A DNA stretch of 64,000 nucleotides from a virus (lineage: Duplodnaviria; Caudoviricetes): positions 64,001 to 128,000 of the IMG/VR virus record IMGVR_UViG_3300019124_000001; one strand, written 5' to 3'. Positions 5,716 to 57,140 of the stretch are shown piece after piece. The position numbers were made by a program, and so were the translations under genes. Each line of letters opens with the position of its first letter. Within the stretch, counting starts at the first letter, position 1. Under the pieces are notes generated by a model. It worked only from the letters and a program-made list of their open reading frames with translations. It was not told where the DNA came from and made no database searches.

Positions 5716-5757
5716 ATATAGAAATTGATCTTTCGTTCAAAGGAGAGTTACAAAACA

Positions 5758-6036
5758 ATGGAATTTGATAATGCAACGTTTGAAAAGCTAAAACTCGAAA
5801 CGTCTTTGAAAGTAGGGACAGATGAATTTTTCCAGCACTACAAGGGGATGACTGAAAAAAGTGCGCAACGAATTTTCGATTTGGCAAAGCGCGAAGCAAA
5901 TATTTTGATTCGCGTTATCAATGGTAATTACATCGTTTACAAGAATCGCTACGATAAATCTGGGATCGCTTGCTCTGCCCAAGATGTGCTTGACATGTTG
6001 CAGAATTACCCAAACACAGTAGTTATTAATTACTAA
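5758..6036 (+). CDS. Hypothetical protein
   Basis: RBS AAGGAG, ATG at 5758. Confidence 0.6.
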   Translation: MEFDNATFEKLKLETSLKVGTDEFFQHYKGMTEKSAQRIFDLAKREANILIRVINGNYIVYKNRYDKSGIACSAQDVLDMLQNYPNTVVINY

Positions 6037-6081
6037 TTTACAAGTTTAATCTACGGCTTGCATCCAAAAGGAGGAACTATA

Positions 6082-6495
6082 ATGGGGAAAATTGTGATCT
6101 TCAGTGCGATAGCAGGAGAAGGTGCAACTACGCAACTGATCAATGAAATGATGAGCTATGTAAATCCTAGCACTTCTGTAAAAATGATACTTCTGTCTAG
6201 TTATTTGAACTTCGATACATTTGCGGCTATTGCTAAGTCGCATAGCAATATTAAACATCTAAGAGCGTCTGATGAAATACGTTTCCAATACGTGGAGACA
6301 ATCTTGGATTCTGAACACTACTTTTTCGAACACGAAGGGGCGAGTGTGATCGCTTTAGATCGTCTTATCAACAACATAGATGATTATAAGCAAATCGAGG
6401 AGTGGGCACATAAATATGGAAAGACTGTACTAGTTTCTCGTGTCTTGCCGAATCGAGTAGCAAAGTGCGATAAATCAGTTCGTGTGCTTCGATAA
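6082..6495 (+). CDS. Hypothetical protein (degenerate P-loop-like N-terminus)
   Basis: RBS AGGAGG; KIVIFSAIAGEGATT. Confidence 0.55.
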   Translation: MGKIVIFSAIAGEGATTQLINEMMSYVNPSTSVKMILLSSYLNFDTFAAIAKSHSNIKHLRASDEIRFQYVETILDSEHYFFEHEGASVIALDRLINNIDDYKQIEEWAHKYGKTVLVSRVLPNRVAKCDKSVRVLR

Positions 6496-6522
6496 AAGAT
6501 TGGTTTCATATTAGGAGGAGAA

Positions 6523-6870
6523 TTGGTCTTGAATAAGCTACGATTTTTAGACGCTAAGATTGCAGAAATGGCGCATGGCTTTAAGTGGAGTACTACAAAG
6601 GGTGATAGAAAATTTCTGTTGTTGCCAAAAGACTATCTCTTGCGTACATGGTCAACTGTCTGGGATGACGATGGAATTCCCACTTGGTTGCCTGAATTTC
6701 ACCTCACTCTAGTAGGTGCGAACGTGATCGTTAACCAAGAATTGGTAGGCAGAGTGATCGAAGTGACGGAAGACAAGAAATTCCGTATCAAATGGCTGAA
6801 TATGAATTATGGTGGCAGAATCGGCAAGTATAATGCTGATTTTATCTTGGATAACGAACTTCAACTATAG
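6523..6870 (+). CDS. Phage ABA-sandwich-like protein, paralog of 39397..39744
   Basis: LRFLDAKIAEMAHGFKW...WDDDGIPTWLPEF. Confidence 0.55.
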   Translation: MVLNKLRFLDAKIAEMAHGFKWSTTKGDRKFLLLPKDYLLRTWSTVWDDDGIPTWLPEFHLTLVGANVIVNQELVGRVIEVTEDKKFRIKWLNMNYGGRIGKYNADFILDNELQL

Positions 6871-6903
6871 ATAAAACATGCCTTTCATCTAACCTAAAAG
6901 GAT

Positions 6904-7092
6904 GTGACACTCGTGTCCAAACGTTTTAACAAAATTGAAGAATTTAGAAATGCAGTCAAGAAATTCAAGAATTCAAATCAAACTCCACAAGAAATTATGA
7001 ATTTCTTACTTGCATTTAGACGGGCGACCATGTTAGGAGACGGGCTTTCTTATGTCAATGTAATGAAGGTCTTGGAGGATGAGATGGCATGA
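6904..7092 (+). CDS. Hypothetical protein
   Basis: ORF coupled to the next gene by ATGA overlap. Confidence 0.55.
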   Translation: MTLVSKRFNKIEEFRNAVKKFKNSNQTPQEIMNFLLAFRRATMLGDGLSYVNVMKVLEDEMA

Positions 7093-7901
7093 AATTTGAC
7101 CTGATTTCCGATATTCATATTGACTTTTATGTTAATATCTGCAAACCCGAATACAAAATGCGAAGGCGTATATCGGAGTTTGTAACATCAATTCTTCCAG
7201 ATGTACCATCTGACACTTTGGCTATCTGTGGCGATATTGGTCACTATAACAGTCAGAACGTAATGTTGCTGGAAGAATTGAGAAAACATTATCAAAATAT
7301 TGTGCTTGTGTTCGGAAACCACGACTTGTATTTGGTGTCCAACAACGCAAGAGGGAAGTATAGAAGAAATTCTCTCTTACGATTGGAAGAAATGAAAGTA
7401 TTAGCTTCCGCAATCGAAGGGGTTTATATCCTCGATGGGAATGTTGTTGAATTGGACGGAATCAAATTTGGCGGTTGTATCATGTGGTACGACTTCTCTT
7501 ATGTCGTACAAGAACTTGGATTGAAAATTGAAAATGCCAAGTATTGTTGGCGTACAGAGTCGAACGATAGTAGGCTTATCGCTGGATTCCCACTCAATGT
7601 GACGGAAATGTTCGAGAAAGAAAAGTCGAAGTTTGACAATATTCTATGTAACAGTGATGTAATTTTGACACATGTTGGAGGAGAGTGGAGTCATTGTGAT
7701 CCACGATTCAAAACTGAGCTTTCTACGAGTTTGTACTACTTTGATGGGAAGCCTTGGATGAACAAGCTAAAAGGTAAAATCTGGTGTTTTGGTCATGATC
7801 ATTATAGACGAGATTACACATTAAACGATTGTCGTTATGTGAATGGTGCATTGGGTTATCCTGACGAAAATAATGGATGCAAAATCGTTACCGTGACTTA
7901 A
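7089..7901 (+). CDS. Calcineurin-like metallophosphoesterase
   Basis: SDIH, GD, GNHD, TH and GHDH motifs. Confidence 0.85.
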   Translation: MKFDLISDIHIDFYVNICKPEYKMRRRISEFVTSILPDVPSDTLAICGDIGHYNSQNVMLLEELRKHYQNIVLVFGNHDLYLVSNNARGKYRRNSLLRLEEMKVLASAIEGVYILDGNVVELDGIKFGGCIMWYDFSYVVQELGLKIENAKYCWRTESNDSRLIAGFPLNVTEMFEKEKSKFDNILCNSDVILTHVGGEWSHCDPRFKTELSTSLYYFDGKPWMNKLKGKIWCFGHDHYRRDYTLNDCRYVNGALGYPDENNGCKIVTVT

Positions 7902-55049: not shown

Positions 55050-55426
55050 TTTGTGGCAAGGCGAGAAAAGCAGATTTCATGCAACAACTATATCGTGGCG
55101 ATAAAACAAAAGACAAATTACTTCTTGACCTTGTAGGTTATCACGCATTTGAAGTAGATCGCTATTTCGGTGGGAGATTTGAAACTCTTGAAGACGTTAA
55201 GGCAATTTTGGAAGAATTGTCTAAATATTCTTCAGTACATGGCAATAAGATCGAGACATTATACATCTATGGAAACTTCCCTGCTGACTGGAAGCAAGAG
55301 TTGAGAGAAATTTTAAGCAAAACATATCATATTCGAAACTTCGTTGTTACTATTCAAGAAGACGTGACAAATGTCAACATGGATAGCGATTATGAGTTTC
55401 GGGTAGAAAATTACTATCATATCTAG
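55031..55426 (+). CDS. Hypothetical protein
   Basis: RBS GGAGGAG. Confidence 0.55.
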   Translation: MAKLTLICGKARKADFMQQLYRGDKTKDKLLLDLVGYHAFEVDRYFGGRFETLEDVKAILEELSKYSSVHGNKIETLYIYGNFPADWKQELREILSKTYHIRNFVVTIQEDVTNVNMDSDYEFRVENYYHI

Positions 55427-55434
55427 GAGAAACC

Positions 55435-55746
55435 ATGATGGCTAAAAAACAATTAGAGATTCCTTTCGATAGGAACGGAAATCCGCTTTCTTATGATGAT
55501 CGACTTAAAGTGCATGACTACCGTGCGAACTACGAATTTGTAACTACTATGCGAGTCGTTGATATGAGTCGTGGTCGAAGTGCGGCAAACTTCACGCTTA
55601 AAGACGAAAAAGGAATTGAATACAATATGTTTATGAAAGACATGTTATATCTGATTCAAAATTGCATTATTGACAAGGGTGTAGTCTCTGGTAAGTGGAC
55701 TTTTGTCAAGCGTGGCAATAATTATGGAATTATGCTTATTGAATAG
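55435..55746 (+). CDS. Hypothetical phage protein
   Basis: RGRSAA, WTFVKRGNNYGI. Confidence 0.6.
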   Translation: MMAKKQLEIPFDRNGNPLSYDDRLKVHDYRANYEFVTTMRVVDMSRGRSAANFTLKDEKGIEYNMFMKDMLYLIQNCIIDKGVVSGKWTFVKRGNNYGIMLIE

Positions 55747-55757
55747 GGGCGGAAAAA

Positions 55758-56711
55758 ATGAAAGAAATTAAAATAGTCAGCCTATTCTCTGGTGTAGGAG
55801 GGTTGGACTACGGTTTTCATAAATATCCACAAGCAAAATTTGTTTTCGCAAATGATATAAACGAGTTTGCATGTTACACATATCACTCGTACTTCGGTTT
55901 CAAGCCTATGTGTGCTGATATTGAACACGTGGACATCAACATGATTCCAGAGTGCGATCTTGTGATTGCAGGAAGTCCAAACAATGGATTTAGCGTCGAA
56001 AATCAGATTAACAACTCTGTCAATCATCCATCCAATAAGTTGGTTGCCAAATTTGTTGAGATAGTCAAAATCAAAAATCCAAATGTGTTCATATTTGAAA
56101 ATGTACCAGAGATTATGACAGTTGGTGGCGGCAAATACGCTCGATTCATCACAGAATCACTGTCCGATTATCATATTGAAATATATGAGGTCAACGCTTT
56201 GAATTATAGTGTTCCACAAAAACGAACAAGCGTCTTATTTGTTGGAAGCAAGATTGGACGGATTGAACGTCCAGTTCAAGATACTGTGACGTATACTGTC
56301 AGAGATGCCTTCGAAGGAATTCATAGCGGCATTCCAAATCAATCTGACGTAAATCCACATCGGAAGATTACTCTTGAACGAATGTCTTATGTACCAGCAG
56401 GGGGAAACATTAACGACATTCCAGAGGAGTTGCGACCGAAAGGCAATCACAGCGACCGCTATCGTCGATTAGAGTATGATAAGCCAAGCATAACAATTGC
56501 CAATCCACGAAAAGCTGTTATATTGCATCCCTTGCATGACAGAATCTTAACTGTTAGAGAATGTGCGAGAATCCAATCTTTCCCTGACGATTTCTTGTTC
56601 TACGGTAGCTTGGATGAAAGACAGCAATTTGTCGCGAATGCATTTCCTCCGCGTCTCAGTGTTAAAATTGCTGATGTAGTGATGAAAGCATTTAATGAGA
56701 AATTAGATTAA
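55758..56711 (+). CDS. DNA C5-cytosine methyltransferase homolog lacking the catalytic Cys
   Basis: SLFSGVGG, ENV, VPQKR, TVRECARIQSFPD present; motif IV reads GSPNNGFS. Confidence 0.85.
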   Translation: MKEIKIVSLFSGVGGLDYGFHKYPQAKFVFANDINEFACYTYHSYFGFKPMCADIEHVDINMIPECDLVIAGSPNNGFSVENQINNSVNHPSNKLVAKFVEIVKIKNPNVFIFENVPEIMTVGGGKYARFITESLSDYHIEIYEVNALNYSVPQKRTSVLFVGSKIGRIERPVQDTVTYTVRDAFEGIHSGIPNQSDVNPHRKITLERMSYVPAGGNINDIPEELRPKGNHSDRYRRLEYDKPSITIANPRKAVILHPLHDRILTVRECARIQSFPDDFLFYGSLDERQQFVANAFPPRLSVKIADVVMKAFNEKLD

Positions 56712-56740
56712 ACAAAAATTTTATCTAAGGAGAGATCAAC

Positions 56741-57079
56741 TTGAAGGCTCACGAGGCTATTTTTCAAGTCAAATGCGTCAATCAAGGCAATAATTCCTCT
56801 ATCTATGTCAACGGAATTTATGATGTTTTCAAAGAAGTCGGTGGATACTACTTAATTATCAATGCACGTGGCAATATGTGCGAGTATCCAAAAGAGTTGT
56901 TCGAACGAATAAAAATTACGCCTAACGTTGACACGATTGGTCTACTGATCGAGCAAGCATTTCAGCAAAGCCGAAACGAACTTATTCGCATTCTGGAAAG
57001 CGAAACACTAGATGGTATCCAAAAAGCAACTGATGACTTTGTTTATCTCCACAAACTTCGCCAATCTGCGAAGAGATAG
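56741..57079 (+). CDS. Hypothetical protein between two palindromic sites
   Basis: RBS AAGGAG, TTG start. Confidence 0.55.
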   Translation: MKAHEAIFQVKCVNQGNNSSIYVNGIYDVFKEVGGYYLIINARGNMCEYPKELFERIKITPNVDTIGLLIEQAFQQSRNELIRILESETLDGIQKATDDFVYLHKLRQSAKR

Positions 57080-57140
57080 TTAGATGAAATCTCACTTTTA
57101 TCAAATAGTAAAACTATAGAATACATCACAGGGGAGAATA

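Follow-up and report, generated by a model that had tools for sequence, protein, structure and literature searches.

We describe a 24-bp DNA element, two 9-bp arms around a 6-bp spacer, that recurs between genes of a large siphophage represented by the IMG/VR virus record IMGVR_UViG_3300019124_000001 (163,787 bp, with direct terminal repeats at its ends; here G0). The stretch analyzed, termed the window, comprises 64,000 nucleotides, bases 64001-128000 of that record; positions are those of the window unless given as genome positions, which run along the whole record. We find that the element is conserved among other phages, that it occurs together with SroF-like proteins, and that it coincides with the joints of mosaic genomes. 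We propose, at about even odds (probability roughly 0.5), that the sites are operator- or stoperator-like docking sites of a SroF/MrpR-like repressor that double as mosaic joints. A first-pass annotation of the window had interpreted palindromes of this kind as borders of exchangeable gene cassettes; the underlying observation is real and wider than first seen, with more sites in the rest of the G0 genome and the same sites in its relatives.

Searching the window for TAGATAAAA-N6-TTTCATCTA with at most three mismatches over the 18 specified bases recovered eight distinct loci (13 strand matches; Table 1), compared with 0.17 matches on average, and never more than 2, in 100 shuffles. Spacing is constant at 6 bp across these strong loci, and each spacer sequence is different. 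The first-pass annotation had counted about ten sites; eight loci stand with the fixed spacing and differing spacers it described, whereas the site at 20748 retains only the core and those at 5719 (TTGATC) and ~39030 (TATCGG) were recovered by neither scan. Its comparison of the inverted arms and 6-bp spacer with the core site of a tyrosine recombinase is sound. A half-site weight matrix run over the whole G0 genome identified 14 sites against 0-1 in each of five shuffles. These are spread over 115 kb, with no array beside any recombinase gene, and all 14 are intergenic, as the annotated placement at gene junctions implied; a single "inside" call falls in a spurious antisense open reading frame (ORF).

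The fit of the sites into these junctions is tight. At seven of the eight strong window loci the left arm supplies the stop codon of the upstream ORF (stop positions were read off at 6493, 6868, 39274, 39742, 40078, and 56709, plus 20752 at the weak site), and at most loci the next start codon lies 6-15 nt beyond the right arm, with most right arms abutting the ribosome-binding site. Both features had been noted in the first-pass annotation, as had the promoterless surroundings: no sigma-70-like promoter adjoins the sites at window 5-8 kb or 38-41 kb. One GATAAAA half is combined with one GATGAAA half in 12/14 G0 sites (binomial p = 0.0065), so that the sites are directional and not true palindromes, and their polarity relative to transcription, read by eye, is about even (~7 to 6). 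No spacer occurs twice among the sites listed for any one genome.

Small genes between sites can be related to one another. The 115- and 112-amino-acid products of two site-bracketed ORFs, one in the 6-kb and one in the 39-kb cluster, are paralogues (blastp 38.8% identity over 80 amino acids, E 2e-16), and two more families of site-bracketed paralogues occur in the related contigs G1 and G2 introduced below. This suggests that gene-plus-site units can be duplicated or moved. The G0 pair gave zero matches in PHROG, Pfam, NCBIfam, and Atlas. A GP30.3/NADAR-like ORF is likewise bracketed, by the strong site at 20264 and the weak site at 20748, in inverted polarity. Directly before the 39-40 kb cluster stand three tandem Ser/Thr-kinase-like paralogues.

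Several simpler identities were rejected. A sigma-A promoter inside the site is ruled out by a hexamer spacing of 12, and an intrinsic terminator by the absence of a GC stem. The element is not known to match the Bacillus subtilis dif sequence, which sets aside a host dif site. A restriction-modification target or homing site is ruled out by length, and by conservation of the element where avoidance would be expected.

Table 1. Sites, genes, and repeats of G0. Coordinates are those of the window unless marked "genome".
Feature	Coordinates	Strand	Sequence	Context
Strong site	6489..6512		TCGATAAAA-GATTGG-TTTCATATT	Left arm holds TAA 6493-6495 of ORF 6082-6495; AGGAGG directly after right arm
Strong site	6868..6891		TAGATAAAA-CATGCC-TTTCATCTA	Perfect consensus; TAG is stop of ORF 6523-6870
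Strong site	20264..20287		TAGATGAAA-GAAACA-TTTTATTAG	Opposite polarity; 11 nt before start of ORF 20299-20754
Weak site	20748..20771		CGAATAAAA-TGAAAG-TTTCATAGG	ATAAAA-N6-TTTCAT core only; 6 mismatches to 18-base consensus, missed by both scans; contains stop of GP30.3/NADAR-like ORF 20299-20754
Strong site	39270..39293		CCGATAAAA-CGAAAA-TTTCATCTA	Left arm holds stop of ORF 39046-39276; then AAGGAGG
Strong site	39742..39765		TAGACAAAA-CTTAGT-TTTCATCTA	TAG is stop of ORF 39406-39744
Strong site	40074..40097		TCGATAAAA-CTACGA-TTTCATCTA	Left arm holds stop of ORF 39781-40080; then AGGAGG
Strong site	56704..56727		TAGATTAAA-CAAAAA-TTTTATCTA	Left arm holds stop of C5 DNA methylase gene 55758-56711
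Strong site	57081..57104		TAGATGAAA-TCTCAC-TTTTATCAA	Between ORF 56741-57079 and PcfJ-like gene 57141-58568
ORF, 115 amino acids	6523..6870	+		Between sites 6489 and 6868
ORF, 112 amino acids	39406..39744	+		Between sites 39270 and 39742
Ser/Thr-kinase-like paralogues (three)	36307-38574			phrog_18305, phrog_11167
Integrase-fold (SroF-like) gene	229-1197	+		322 amino acids
Tetratricopeptide repeat (TPR) protein gene	1721-2704			327 amino acids; weak TPR_12 match
58-codon ORF	2731-2907
Promoter-like repeat	11133, 11248, 18168, 23585, 27469, 31681, 43499, 46325, 53107, 53932, 62563		GTTGACAAACAACAACTATGTATGGTAAGAT	~30 bp each
Promoter-like repeat	genome 16443(-), 24732		GTTGACAAACAACAACTATGTATGGTAAGAT
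Long inverted repeat	genome ~63770-63900		CGAAAAAGGGTAACTCTTTGC ... GCAAAGAGTTACCCTTTTTCG	Loop very rich in A+T; lies within the 560-bp gap upstream of the SroF-like gene
Tail-module recombinase gene, Xer-like	genome 151689-152666			Between tail chaperones and tape measure; PF00589 4.6e-20; R, HxxR, H, Y kept
GC-rich inverted repeat	genome 151560-151690	-	AAGATCGTAGGG-N7-CCCTGCGATCTT	Right after tail recombinase stop codon
XerD-like catalytic-type tyrosine recombinase gene	genome 19637-20680			PF00589 above cut-off
HU/IHF-like gene	genome 12420-12797
FtsZ/TubZ-like gene	genome 16676-17806	-		376 amino acids; TIGR00065 1.4e-14, below cut-off; outside window

Its DNA polymerase places G0 nearest, among named phages, to Brevibacillus phage Sundance (50.7% amino-acid identity), and no close or nucleotide-level relative of G0 was found by megablast of window 36000-42000 against phages or by IMG/VR peptide-pattern scans with its SroF-like and RecJ-like proteins. 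Breakpoints were therefore compared between two other pairs of phages: G1 and G2, which are IMG/VR contigs of 167-171 kb, and phages Tsamsa and Thrax1. G1 and G2 came from an exact-pattern scan of IMG/VR, in which each gave many matches; they hold 10 perfect GATAAAA-N6-TTTTATC cores apiece (reversed control, 0), with fully symmetric arms, TAGATAAAA on both sides. Sites at one mismatch or fewer number 13 in Tsamsa, which also has 20 perfect ATAAAA-N6-TTTTAT cores; Thrax1 has 22 such cores, and the arms of both phages are, read by eye, heterotypic as in G0. A third IMG/VR contig, G003 (166,766 bp), carries 11 GATAAAA-N6-TTTTATT sites at one mismatch or fewer and is otherwise an unrelated phage, with just 9-15 weak protein matches to G0-G2. 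In a metagenome pattern scan each of the at least 120 stretches listed had one match, which is consistent with chance, and no multi-site contig was among them.

One site keeps its position in seven phages (G0, G1, G2, Sundance, KKP_3916, Tsamsa, and Thrax1), where it closely follows the major-tail-protein gene and its intrinsic terminator and lies upstream of the chaperone, recombinase, and tape-measure genes. The element spans the Tyrovirus group, whose hosts include Bacillus anthracis and B. cereus. We found no prior description of it: "palindrom" occurs 0 times in the available text of PMC3903500 and PMC9703825, supplementary tables aside.

Between G1 and G2 the sites stand out as conserved points at which homology ends. 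The two contigs are 74-90% identical in alignable blocks separated by many unalignable gaps. Each of 10 strong G1 sites has a G2 orthologue, with identical arms in 10/10 pairs and 57/60 identical spacer bases (p = 3e-4 against 78% flank identity, p = 0.015 against 85%); on this comparison, selection on the sites appears strong. In eight pairs one flank shows 52-86% ungapped identity over 90 bp and the other 21-44%, with the fall beginning within a few bases of the arm; the remaining two pairs (9884/30997 and 127933/149481) have no clear flank homology. Synteny, counted on crude in-house gene calls, is broken at 10/10 strong-site junctions and kept at one weak site (60461), compared with 122/224 (G1) and 130/232 (G2) broken at other junctions (Fisher p = 0.015 and 0.0036). 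Beside some sites stand free-standing HNH/homing-endonuclease genes (G1 163731-164678 and 59290-59733; G2 80825-81283), one of which is present in G1 and absent in G2.

Tsamsa and Thrax1 give a second, independent comparison. Automatic pairing of their sites yields 27/48 identical spacer bases, a figure that includes two mispairings from tandem sites. At two single-small-gene indels Tsamsa has site-gene-site and Thrax1 a single site carrying the second spacer (TTTCCC and GGATAA). From these two comparisons we conclude that breakpoints coincide with the sites: homology and synteny break at all 10 orthologous G1/G2 site pairs, as the cassette proposal had predicted, and both indels are site-bounded. 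Most variable segments, in contrast to a cassette, have a site at one end only. No second site, even a degenerate one at 12/18 arm matches, was found in 12 regions scanned around G1/G2 sites, the far ends of variable segments included.

Contigs from four runs of one biocrust study holding G0, three of them possibly the source of the window phage, contain no joints at the sites, and contigs drop rare forms; in one of these runs word depth is as high as about 10,000. As they are unable to show rare circles, this result speaks neither for nor against recombination. Hybrid sites, duplicated spacers, and circular or deleted forms were likewise not seen, which is weak evidence given that it comes from contigs and listed sites. 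The only joints listed in these contigs stem from the repeated promoter element GTTGACAAACAACAACTATGTATGGTAAGAT considered below.

A candidate binder lies at the start of the window. The first-pass statement that the window holds no intact recombinase is right for catalytic enzymes, but 229-1197 encodes an intact integrase-fold protein. It matches phrog_5830 ("integrase", 1.3e-66), Pfam PF22822 (MrpR_N_CB, an N-terminal core-binding domain; 1.8e-18), and, in the PDB, Phi3T SroF bound to DNA (9rd5, 2.6e-24), MrpR (8a0a, 3.1e-18), and MrpR/YopR entries generally (~1e-18), while the catalytic domain PF00589 was missed by the Pfam scan at an E limit of 0.001 and in a separate search is reached only at 2e-4, below cut-off. 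Its box-I arginine aligns to a non-arginine in a profile alignment of low probability (5.8%), and box II, read by eye, is Q-N-L-S-R-S where a catalytic enzyme has H-D-L-R-H-S, so that both catalytic arginines appear to be missing. By these matches we identify the protein as a homologue of the SPbeta-family master repressor MrpR/YopR/SroF. According to the text available for two sources, this family has an integrase fold that has lost recombinase function, acts as master repressor of SPbeta-type phages, and binds many dispersed 15-26-bp A-tract boxes (SPBRE) across the phage genome (PMC10516654; bioRxiv 10.1101/2025.11.27.690993). The Phi3T SroF box, as described in the accessible part of the latter, is a non-palindromic 24-26-bp A-tract to which SroF binds as a monomer, reading the 6 bp at its center, and the box as quoted there contains TTTTAT, the core of our site arms, twice (bioRxiv 10.1101/2025.11.27.690993). 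Two of the three base-reading core-binding-domain residues of SroF, T22 and Y26, align to T23 and Y27 of the window protein, a match that presumes a shift of 2 between the chain numberings; T23 and Y27 are invariant among the window protein, its G1 and G2 counterparts, and Tsamsa gp94.

SroF-like proteins are present in 6/6 motif-rich phages examined, detected by sequence in G0, G1, G2, and Tsamsa, by tblastn in Thrax1, and by fold only in G003. The G003 protein (47222-48211) was modeled with a mean predicted local distance difference test (pLDDT) score of 87.8, and the top seven Foldseek matches of the model in the PDB are SroF, YopR, or MrpR (E 8e-8 to 9e-6), ahead of true recombinases. This protein also has homologues on many metagenome contigs (58 clusters).

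The surroundings of the window gene hold further features. It has its own strong promoter, TTGACT-N17-TGTTATAAT. The long inverted repeat in the gap before it may serve as an origin or, alternatively, as a large terminator. Directly downstream lie a TPR protein gene and then a 58-codon ORF (Table 1), a layout that recalls a peptide-sensing pair of RRNPP/arbitrium type (AimR-AimP); AimR models gave no match.

We propose that the sites would act as docking elements on double-stranded DNA. They are 24-bp dyads with an ATAAAA (or ATGAAA) core in each 9-bp arm, and large Bacillales siphophages of the Sundance/Tyrovirus neighborhood carry them where accessory genes meet, in short intergenic stretches that follow terminators or adjoin promoters. 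The likeliest binder would be the phage's own MrpR/SroF-like protein, and the arm-N6-arm geometry may have been inherited from recombinase core sites and now serve binding in place of cleavage. Once occupied, a site would keep the unit downstream of it silent or insulated, through a roadblock like that at the stoperators of mycobacteriophages or, where site and promoter overlap, through promoter occlusion. The sites are the sole strictly conserved islands in hypervariable regions and lie at the boundaries of uncoupled units; replacements, insertions (including those of homing-endonuclease genes), and duplications of small paralogues would therefore begin or end there. The first-pass annotation had set transcription-factor operators against cassette exchange; the operator reading now leads, with binding by the SroF-like protein putative.

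The relation of the sites to promoters bears on this proposal. A half-site, AGATAAAA, lies within the 17-nt spacer of TTGACA...TATAAT promoters 17 times in G1 and 18 times in G2, and also just before the ribosome-binding site of further genes of both. The tail-module site of Tsamsa has the spacer TTGAAA, which forms the -35 of a TTGAAA-17-TGgTATAAT promoter, and both Tsamsa and Thrax1 have a site 170-190 bp upstream of the SroF-like gene. Two G0 sites outside the window (genome 38193 and 55934) lie ~20 bp before TTGACA promoters, one of them following a terminator. G0 also has a second repeat family, the sigma-A-type promoter GTTGACAAACAACAACTATGTATGGTAAGAT, whose 17-nt spacer hardly varies, in 13 full copies and 26 matches to the 21-nt core at two mismatches or fewer; in a few copies the -35 or -10 is missing, and these adjoin a ribosome-binding site. 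Such conservation of a spacer suggests that a regulator binds within the promoter.

A number of observations weigh against a SroF-like repressor as the binder. The GTTGACAAACAACAACTATGTATGGTAAGAT element could itself be the repressor's classical SPBRE-type operator and so compete with the dyads for the same protein. The window sites, unlike SPBRE, lie outside promoters, and the site is absent from the 560 bp upstream of the window's SroF-like gene. Both the dyad form and the variation of the central 6 bp between sites depart from the published SroF box. Identity between the SroF-like proteins of G0 and those of G1/G2 is only 31-32%, yet the arms scarcely differ; the tail-module recombinase, at 57-61% identity, ranks among the four proteins that are best conserved over this comparison. 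A recombination system, too, would give conserved spacers, heterotypic arms, and indels bounded by sites.

The rival that survives best, which we regard as rather unlikely, is such a system: true recombination sites of a phage Xer-like tyrosine recombinase, whether the tail-module enzyme, the XerD-like enzyme, or a heterodimer of both. Private spacers would bar exchange within a genome, and matched sites on co-infecting or co-resident relatives would swap segments between them, giving a natural pdif-module-like or heterospecific-site cassette exchange. The 9-6-9 geometry and heterotypic arms fit this idea, as do spacers that are unique within a genome and nearly identical between orthologues, homology that stops at the site edge, the two one-gene indels, and paralogous small genes bracketed by sites at different loci. 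The enzymes exist as well. A co-occurring tyrosine recombinase, which the first-pass annotation had proposed to look for, is present twice in catalytic form in G0, both times outside the window, and in the tail enzyme R, H-x-x-R, H, and Y are all retained. PF00589 matches above cut-off number 2-3 per genome in G0, G1, G2, and G003. Possession of three tyrosine recombinases is, in the available text of its description, the defining trait of the Tsamsa-like Tyrovirus group (PMC9703825), and the G0 trio of integrase-fold genes matches it.

Against recombination by these enzymes stand the lack of a second site in the 12 G1/G2 regions scanned and, weakly, of recombinant forms in contigs. The distribution of the tail enzyme does not follow that of the sites: Sundance has a tail recombinase of 56-58% identity, yet only 2 near matches genome-wide; KKP_3916 has one of 61% identity and one site in the 8-kb region read; and Tsamsa (25% identity) and G003 (no match) are without a close homologue, yet have many sites. 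A different palindrome, the GC-rich inverted repeat of Table 1, directly follows the tail recombinase gene and may be a terminator or a site used by that enzyme itself. Thrax1 has only one perfect 11-6-11 repeat, at 41052, unrelated in sequence to the 24-bp site and sharing an AAGAT start with the G0 repeat; the tail-module recombinase thus appears, from these repeats, to have a different candidate site of its own. The Thrax1 repeat is probably the published putative attP of Tyroviruses, an identification that we infer. Promoter-embedded half-sites have no recombination role, and some of the insertions adjoining sites are homing-endonuclease genes, mobile by their own means. The integron- or pdif-like cassette exchange first proposed retains its geometry and breakpoints but is at odds with one-sided segments, contigs free of joints, an integrase-fold protein that belongs to a non-catalytic repressor family, and half-sites in promoters.

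A combined scheme is also unlikely in our estimation: the sites would be heterospecific recombination targets, with the same arms and a private spacer, exchanging only with matched sites of a co-resident relative, and the presumably catalytically dead SroF-like repressor would have evolved to bind them.

We consider it doubtful that the sites dock another genome-organizing DNA-binding protein, either the phage HU/IHF-like protein or a Bacillales host factor, with joints gathering at them merely through conservation and permissive junctions. G003 shares with the other phages the motif and, among sequence-detectable DNA-binding proteins, only an HU-like protein; HU-like homologues occur in G1, G2, G003, and, weakly, Tsamsa; and the ATAAAA-N6-TTTTAT core is kept across phages with very divergent regulators. 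Yet the HU-like protein is undetected in Thrax1 (E 1e-3) despite its 22 sites, and a SroF-like fold does exist in G003. HU-family proteins are, in addition, mostly non-specific, and no Bacillus regulator is known whose consensus fits the motif.

It is very improbable that the sites act in RNA, as intercistronic hairpins that protect the upstream message, mark processing, or modulate translation of the next gene. Their position between stop codon and Shine-Dalgarno sequence, folding of the G1 sites to -4.3 to -10.8 kcal/mol, and the tail-module site after the major-tail-protein gene, where differential expression is common, would suit this role; in G0, however, sense-strand folding reaches only -2.9 kcal/mol or weaker at 10/15 sites folded (0.0 at two), six window sites fold at 0.0 to -1.9 kcal/mol with the antisense folding better at five, and about half of the sites acquire an A·C mismatch in their sense transcripts through the conserved A/G asymmetry. 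Genuine intrinsic terminators are separate and lie beside some sites, half-sites occur inside promoter spacers, and polarity is not coupled to the direction of transcription. Heterotypic halves, even polarity, and weak sense hairpins together argue that the site acts on DNA, not RNA, which makes RNA-hairpin action in G0 unlikely.

The favored reading as docking sites of a SroF-like repressor places the element closest to the SPBRE/SroF boxes of SPbeta (MrpR/YopR) and Phi3T (SroF). Common to both are many intergenic copies of a ~24-bp A-tract-rich box over a large phage genome and a homologous protein of recombinase fold, with the catalytic arginines apparently lost here. The known box is non-palindromic and read at its center by a monomer, whereas ours is a 9-6-9 dyad with a variable center. 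SPBRE boxes occupy promoter regions of lytic genes, whereas most window sites fall between a stop codon and a ribosome-binding site; placement in promoter regions does hold for some G0 sites outside the window and in relatives. G0, a 164-kb siphophage with terminal repeats, is only distantly related to SPbeta, and box binding here is predicted only.

The pdif/dif modules of Acinetobacter plasmids have inverted arms around a variable 6-bp spacer, many sites per replicon, heterotypic arms, and positions at module borders. Arms-N6-arms, numerous sites, heterotypic arms, and borders of small gene modules that vary between relatives recur here; the differences are the 9-bp arms, a sequence unrelated to dif, mostly one-sided modules, a polarity that does not alternate regularly, the lack of any pointer to host Xer action, and a nearest integrase-fold gene that is a repressor homologue. 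Integrons differ more: IntI-attI-promoter and folding attC sites of ~60-140 bp are absent, our sites being 24 bp and dispersed, and the integron-integrase model matches the tail enzyme at only 7.3e-5, below cut-off. The SAS/ESAS motifs of Cluster K mycobacteriophages are reportedly comparable dispersed intergenic sites.

Stoperators of Cluster A mycobacteriophages are described in the available text of PMC9283540 and PMC6550527 as 13-bp asymmetric sites, oriented with transcription and bound by a helix-turn-helix repressor. As described there, they too are numerous, dispersed in short intergenic gaps, near start codons, and inside operons; our element differs as a dyad of roughly even polarity with a candidate binder of integrase fold. 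The PeSLs of T4-type phages, according to the accessible part of PMC2839356, are cassettes of a sigma-70 promoter and a terminator hairpin that mediate modular shuffling, recombining by homology and giving mini-circles. In that account they resemble our sites as a short conserved motif repeated between non-essential small genes at which indels and replacements start or end (here, in relatives), and differ in being a promoter-hairpin unit, whereas ours is a 24-bp protein-type dyad that lacks a promoter or stable hairpin and for which circles were not seen.

PHROG and Pfam scans characterize G0 as a large siphophage that brings its own genes for replication and nucleotide metabolism, encoding a DnaB-like helicase, primase, RecJ-like exonuclease, ribonucleotide reductase, ligase, tRNA repair, and NAD salvage functions. 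The window has a G+C content of ~40%, and nearly all of its genes lie on the plus strand with AGGAGG-type ribosome-binding sites. Outside it lie genes for portal, tail, lysis, sigma-like, HU-like, and TubZ/FtsZ-like proteins. The FtsZ/TubZ-like gene is near the HU-like, sigma-like, and XerD-like recombinase genes, a neighborhood that suggests a plasmid-prophage lifestyle for G0. Such a lifestyle is known for phage c-st. It has already been proposed for Tyroviruses.

Recombinase-type geometry has been a good lead, and the breakpoint prediction derived from it holds. If the SroF-like protein does bind them, the sites would connect the core sites of true recombinases with the non-palindromic boxes that a monomer binds in SPbeta and Phi3T, and would reveal the route by which a recombinase turned into a repressor acting across a whole genome. 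The heterospecific reading, if true, would provide a natural analogue of recombinase-mediated cassette exchange in large Bacillales phage-plasmids. The old "linker" idea of phage mosaicism can also be tested cleanly here: the joints of two independent pairs of relatives map to one defined element of 24 bp with a conserved spacer, so that homology, site-specific exchange, and permissiveness can be distinguished experimentally.

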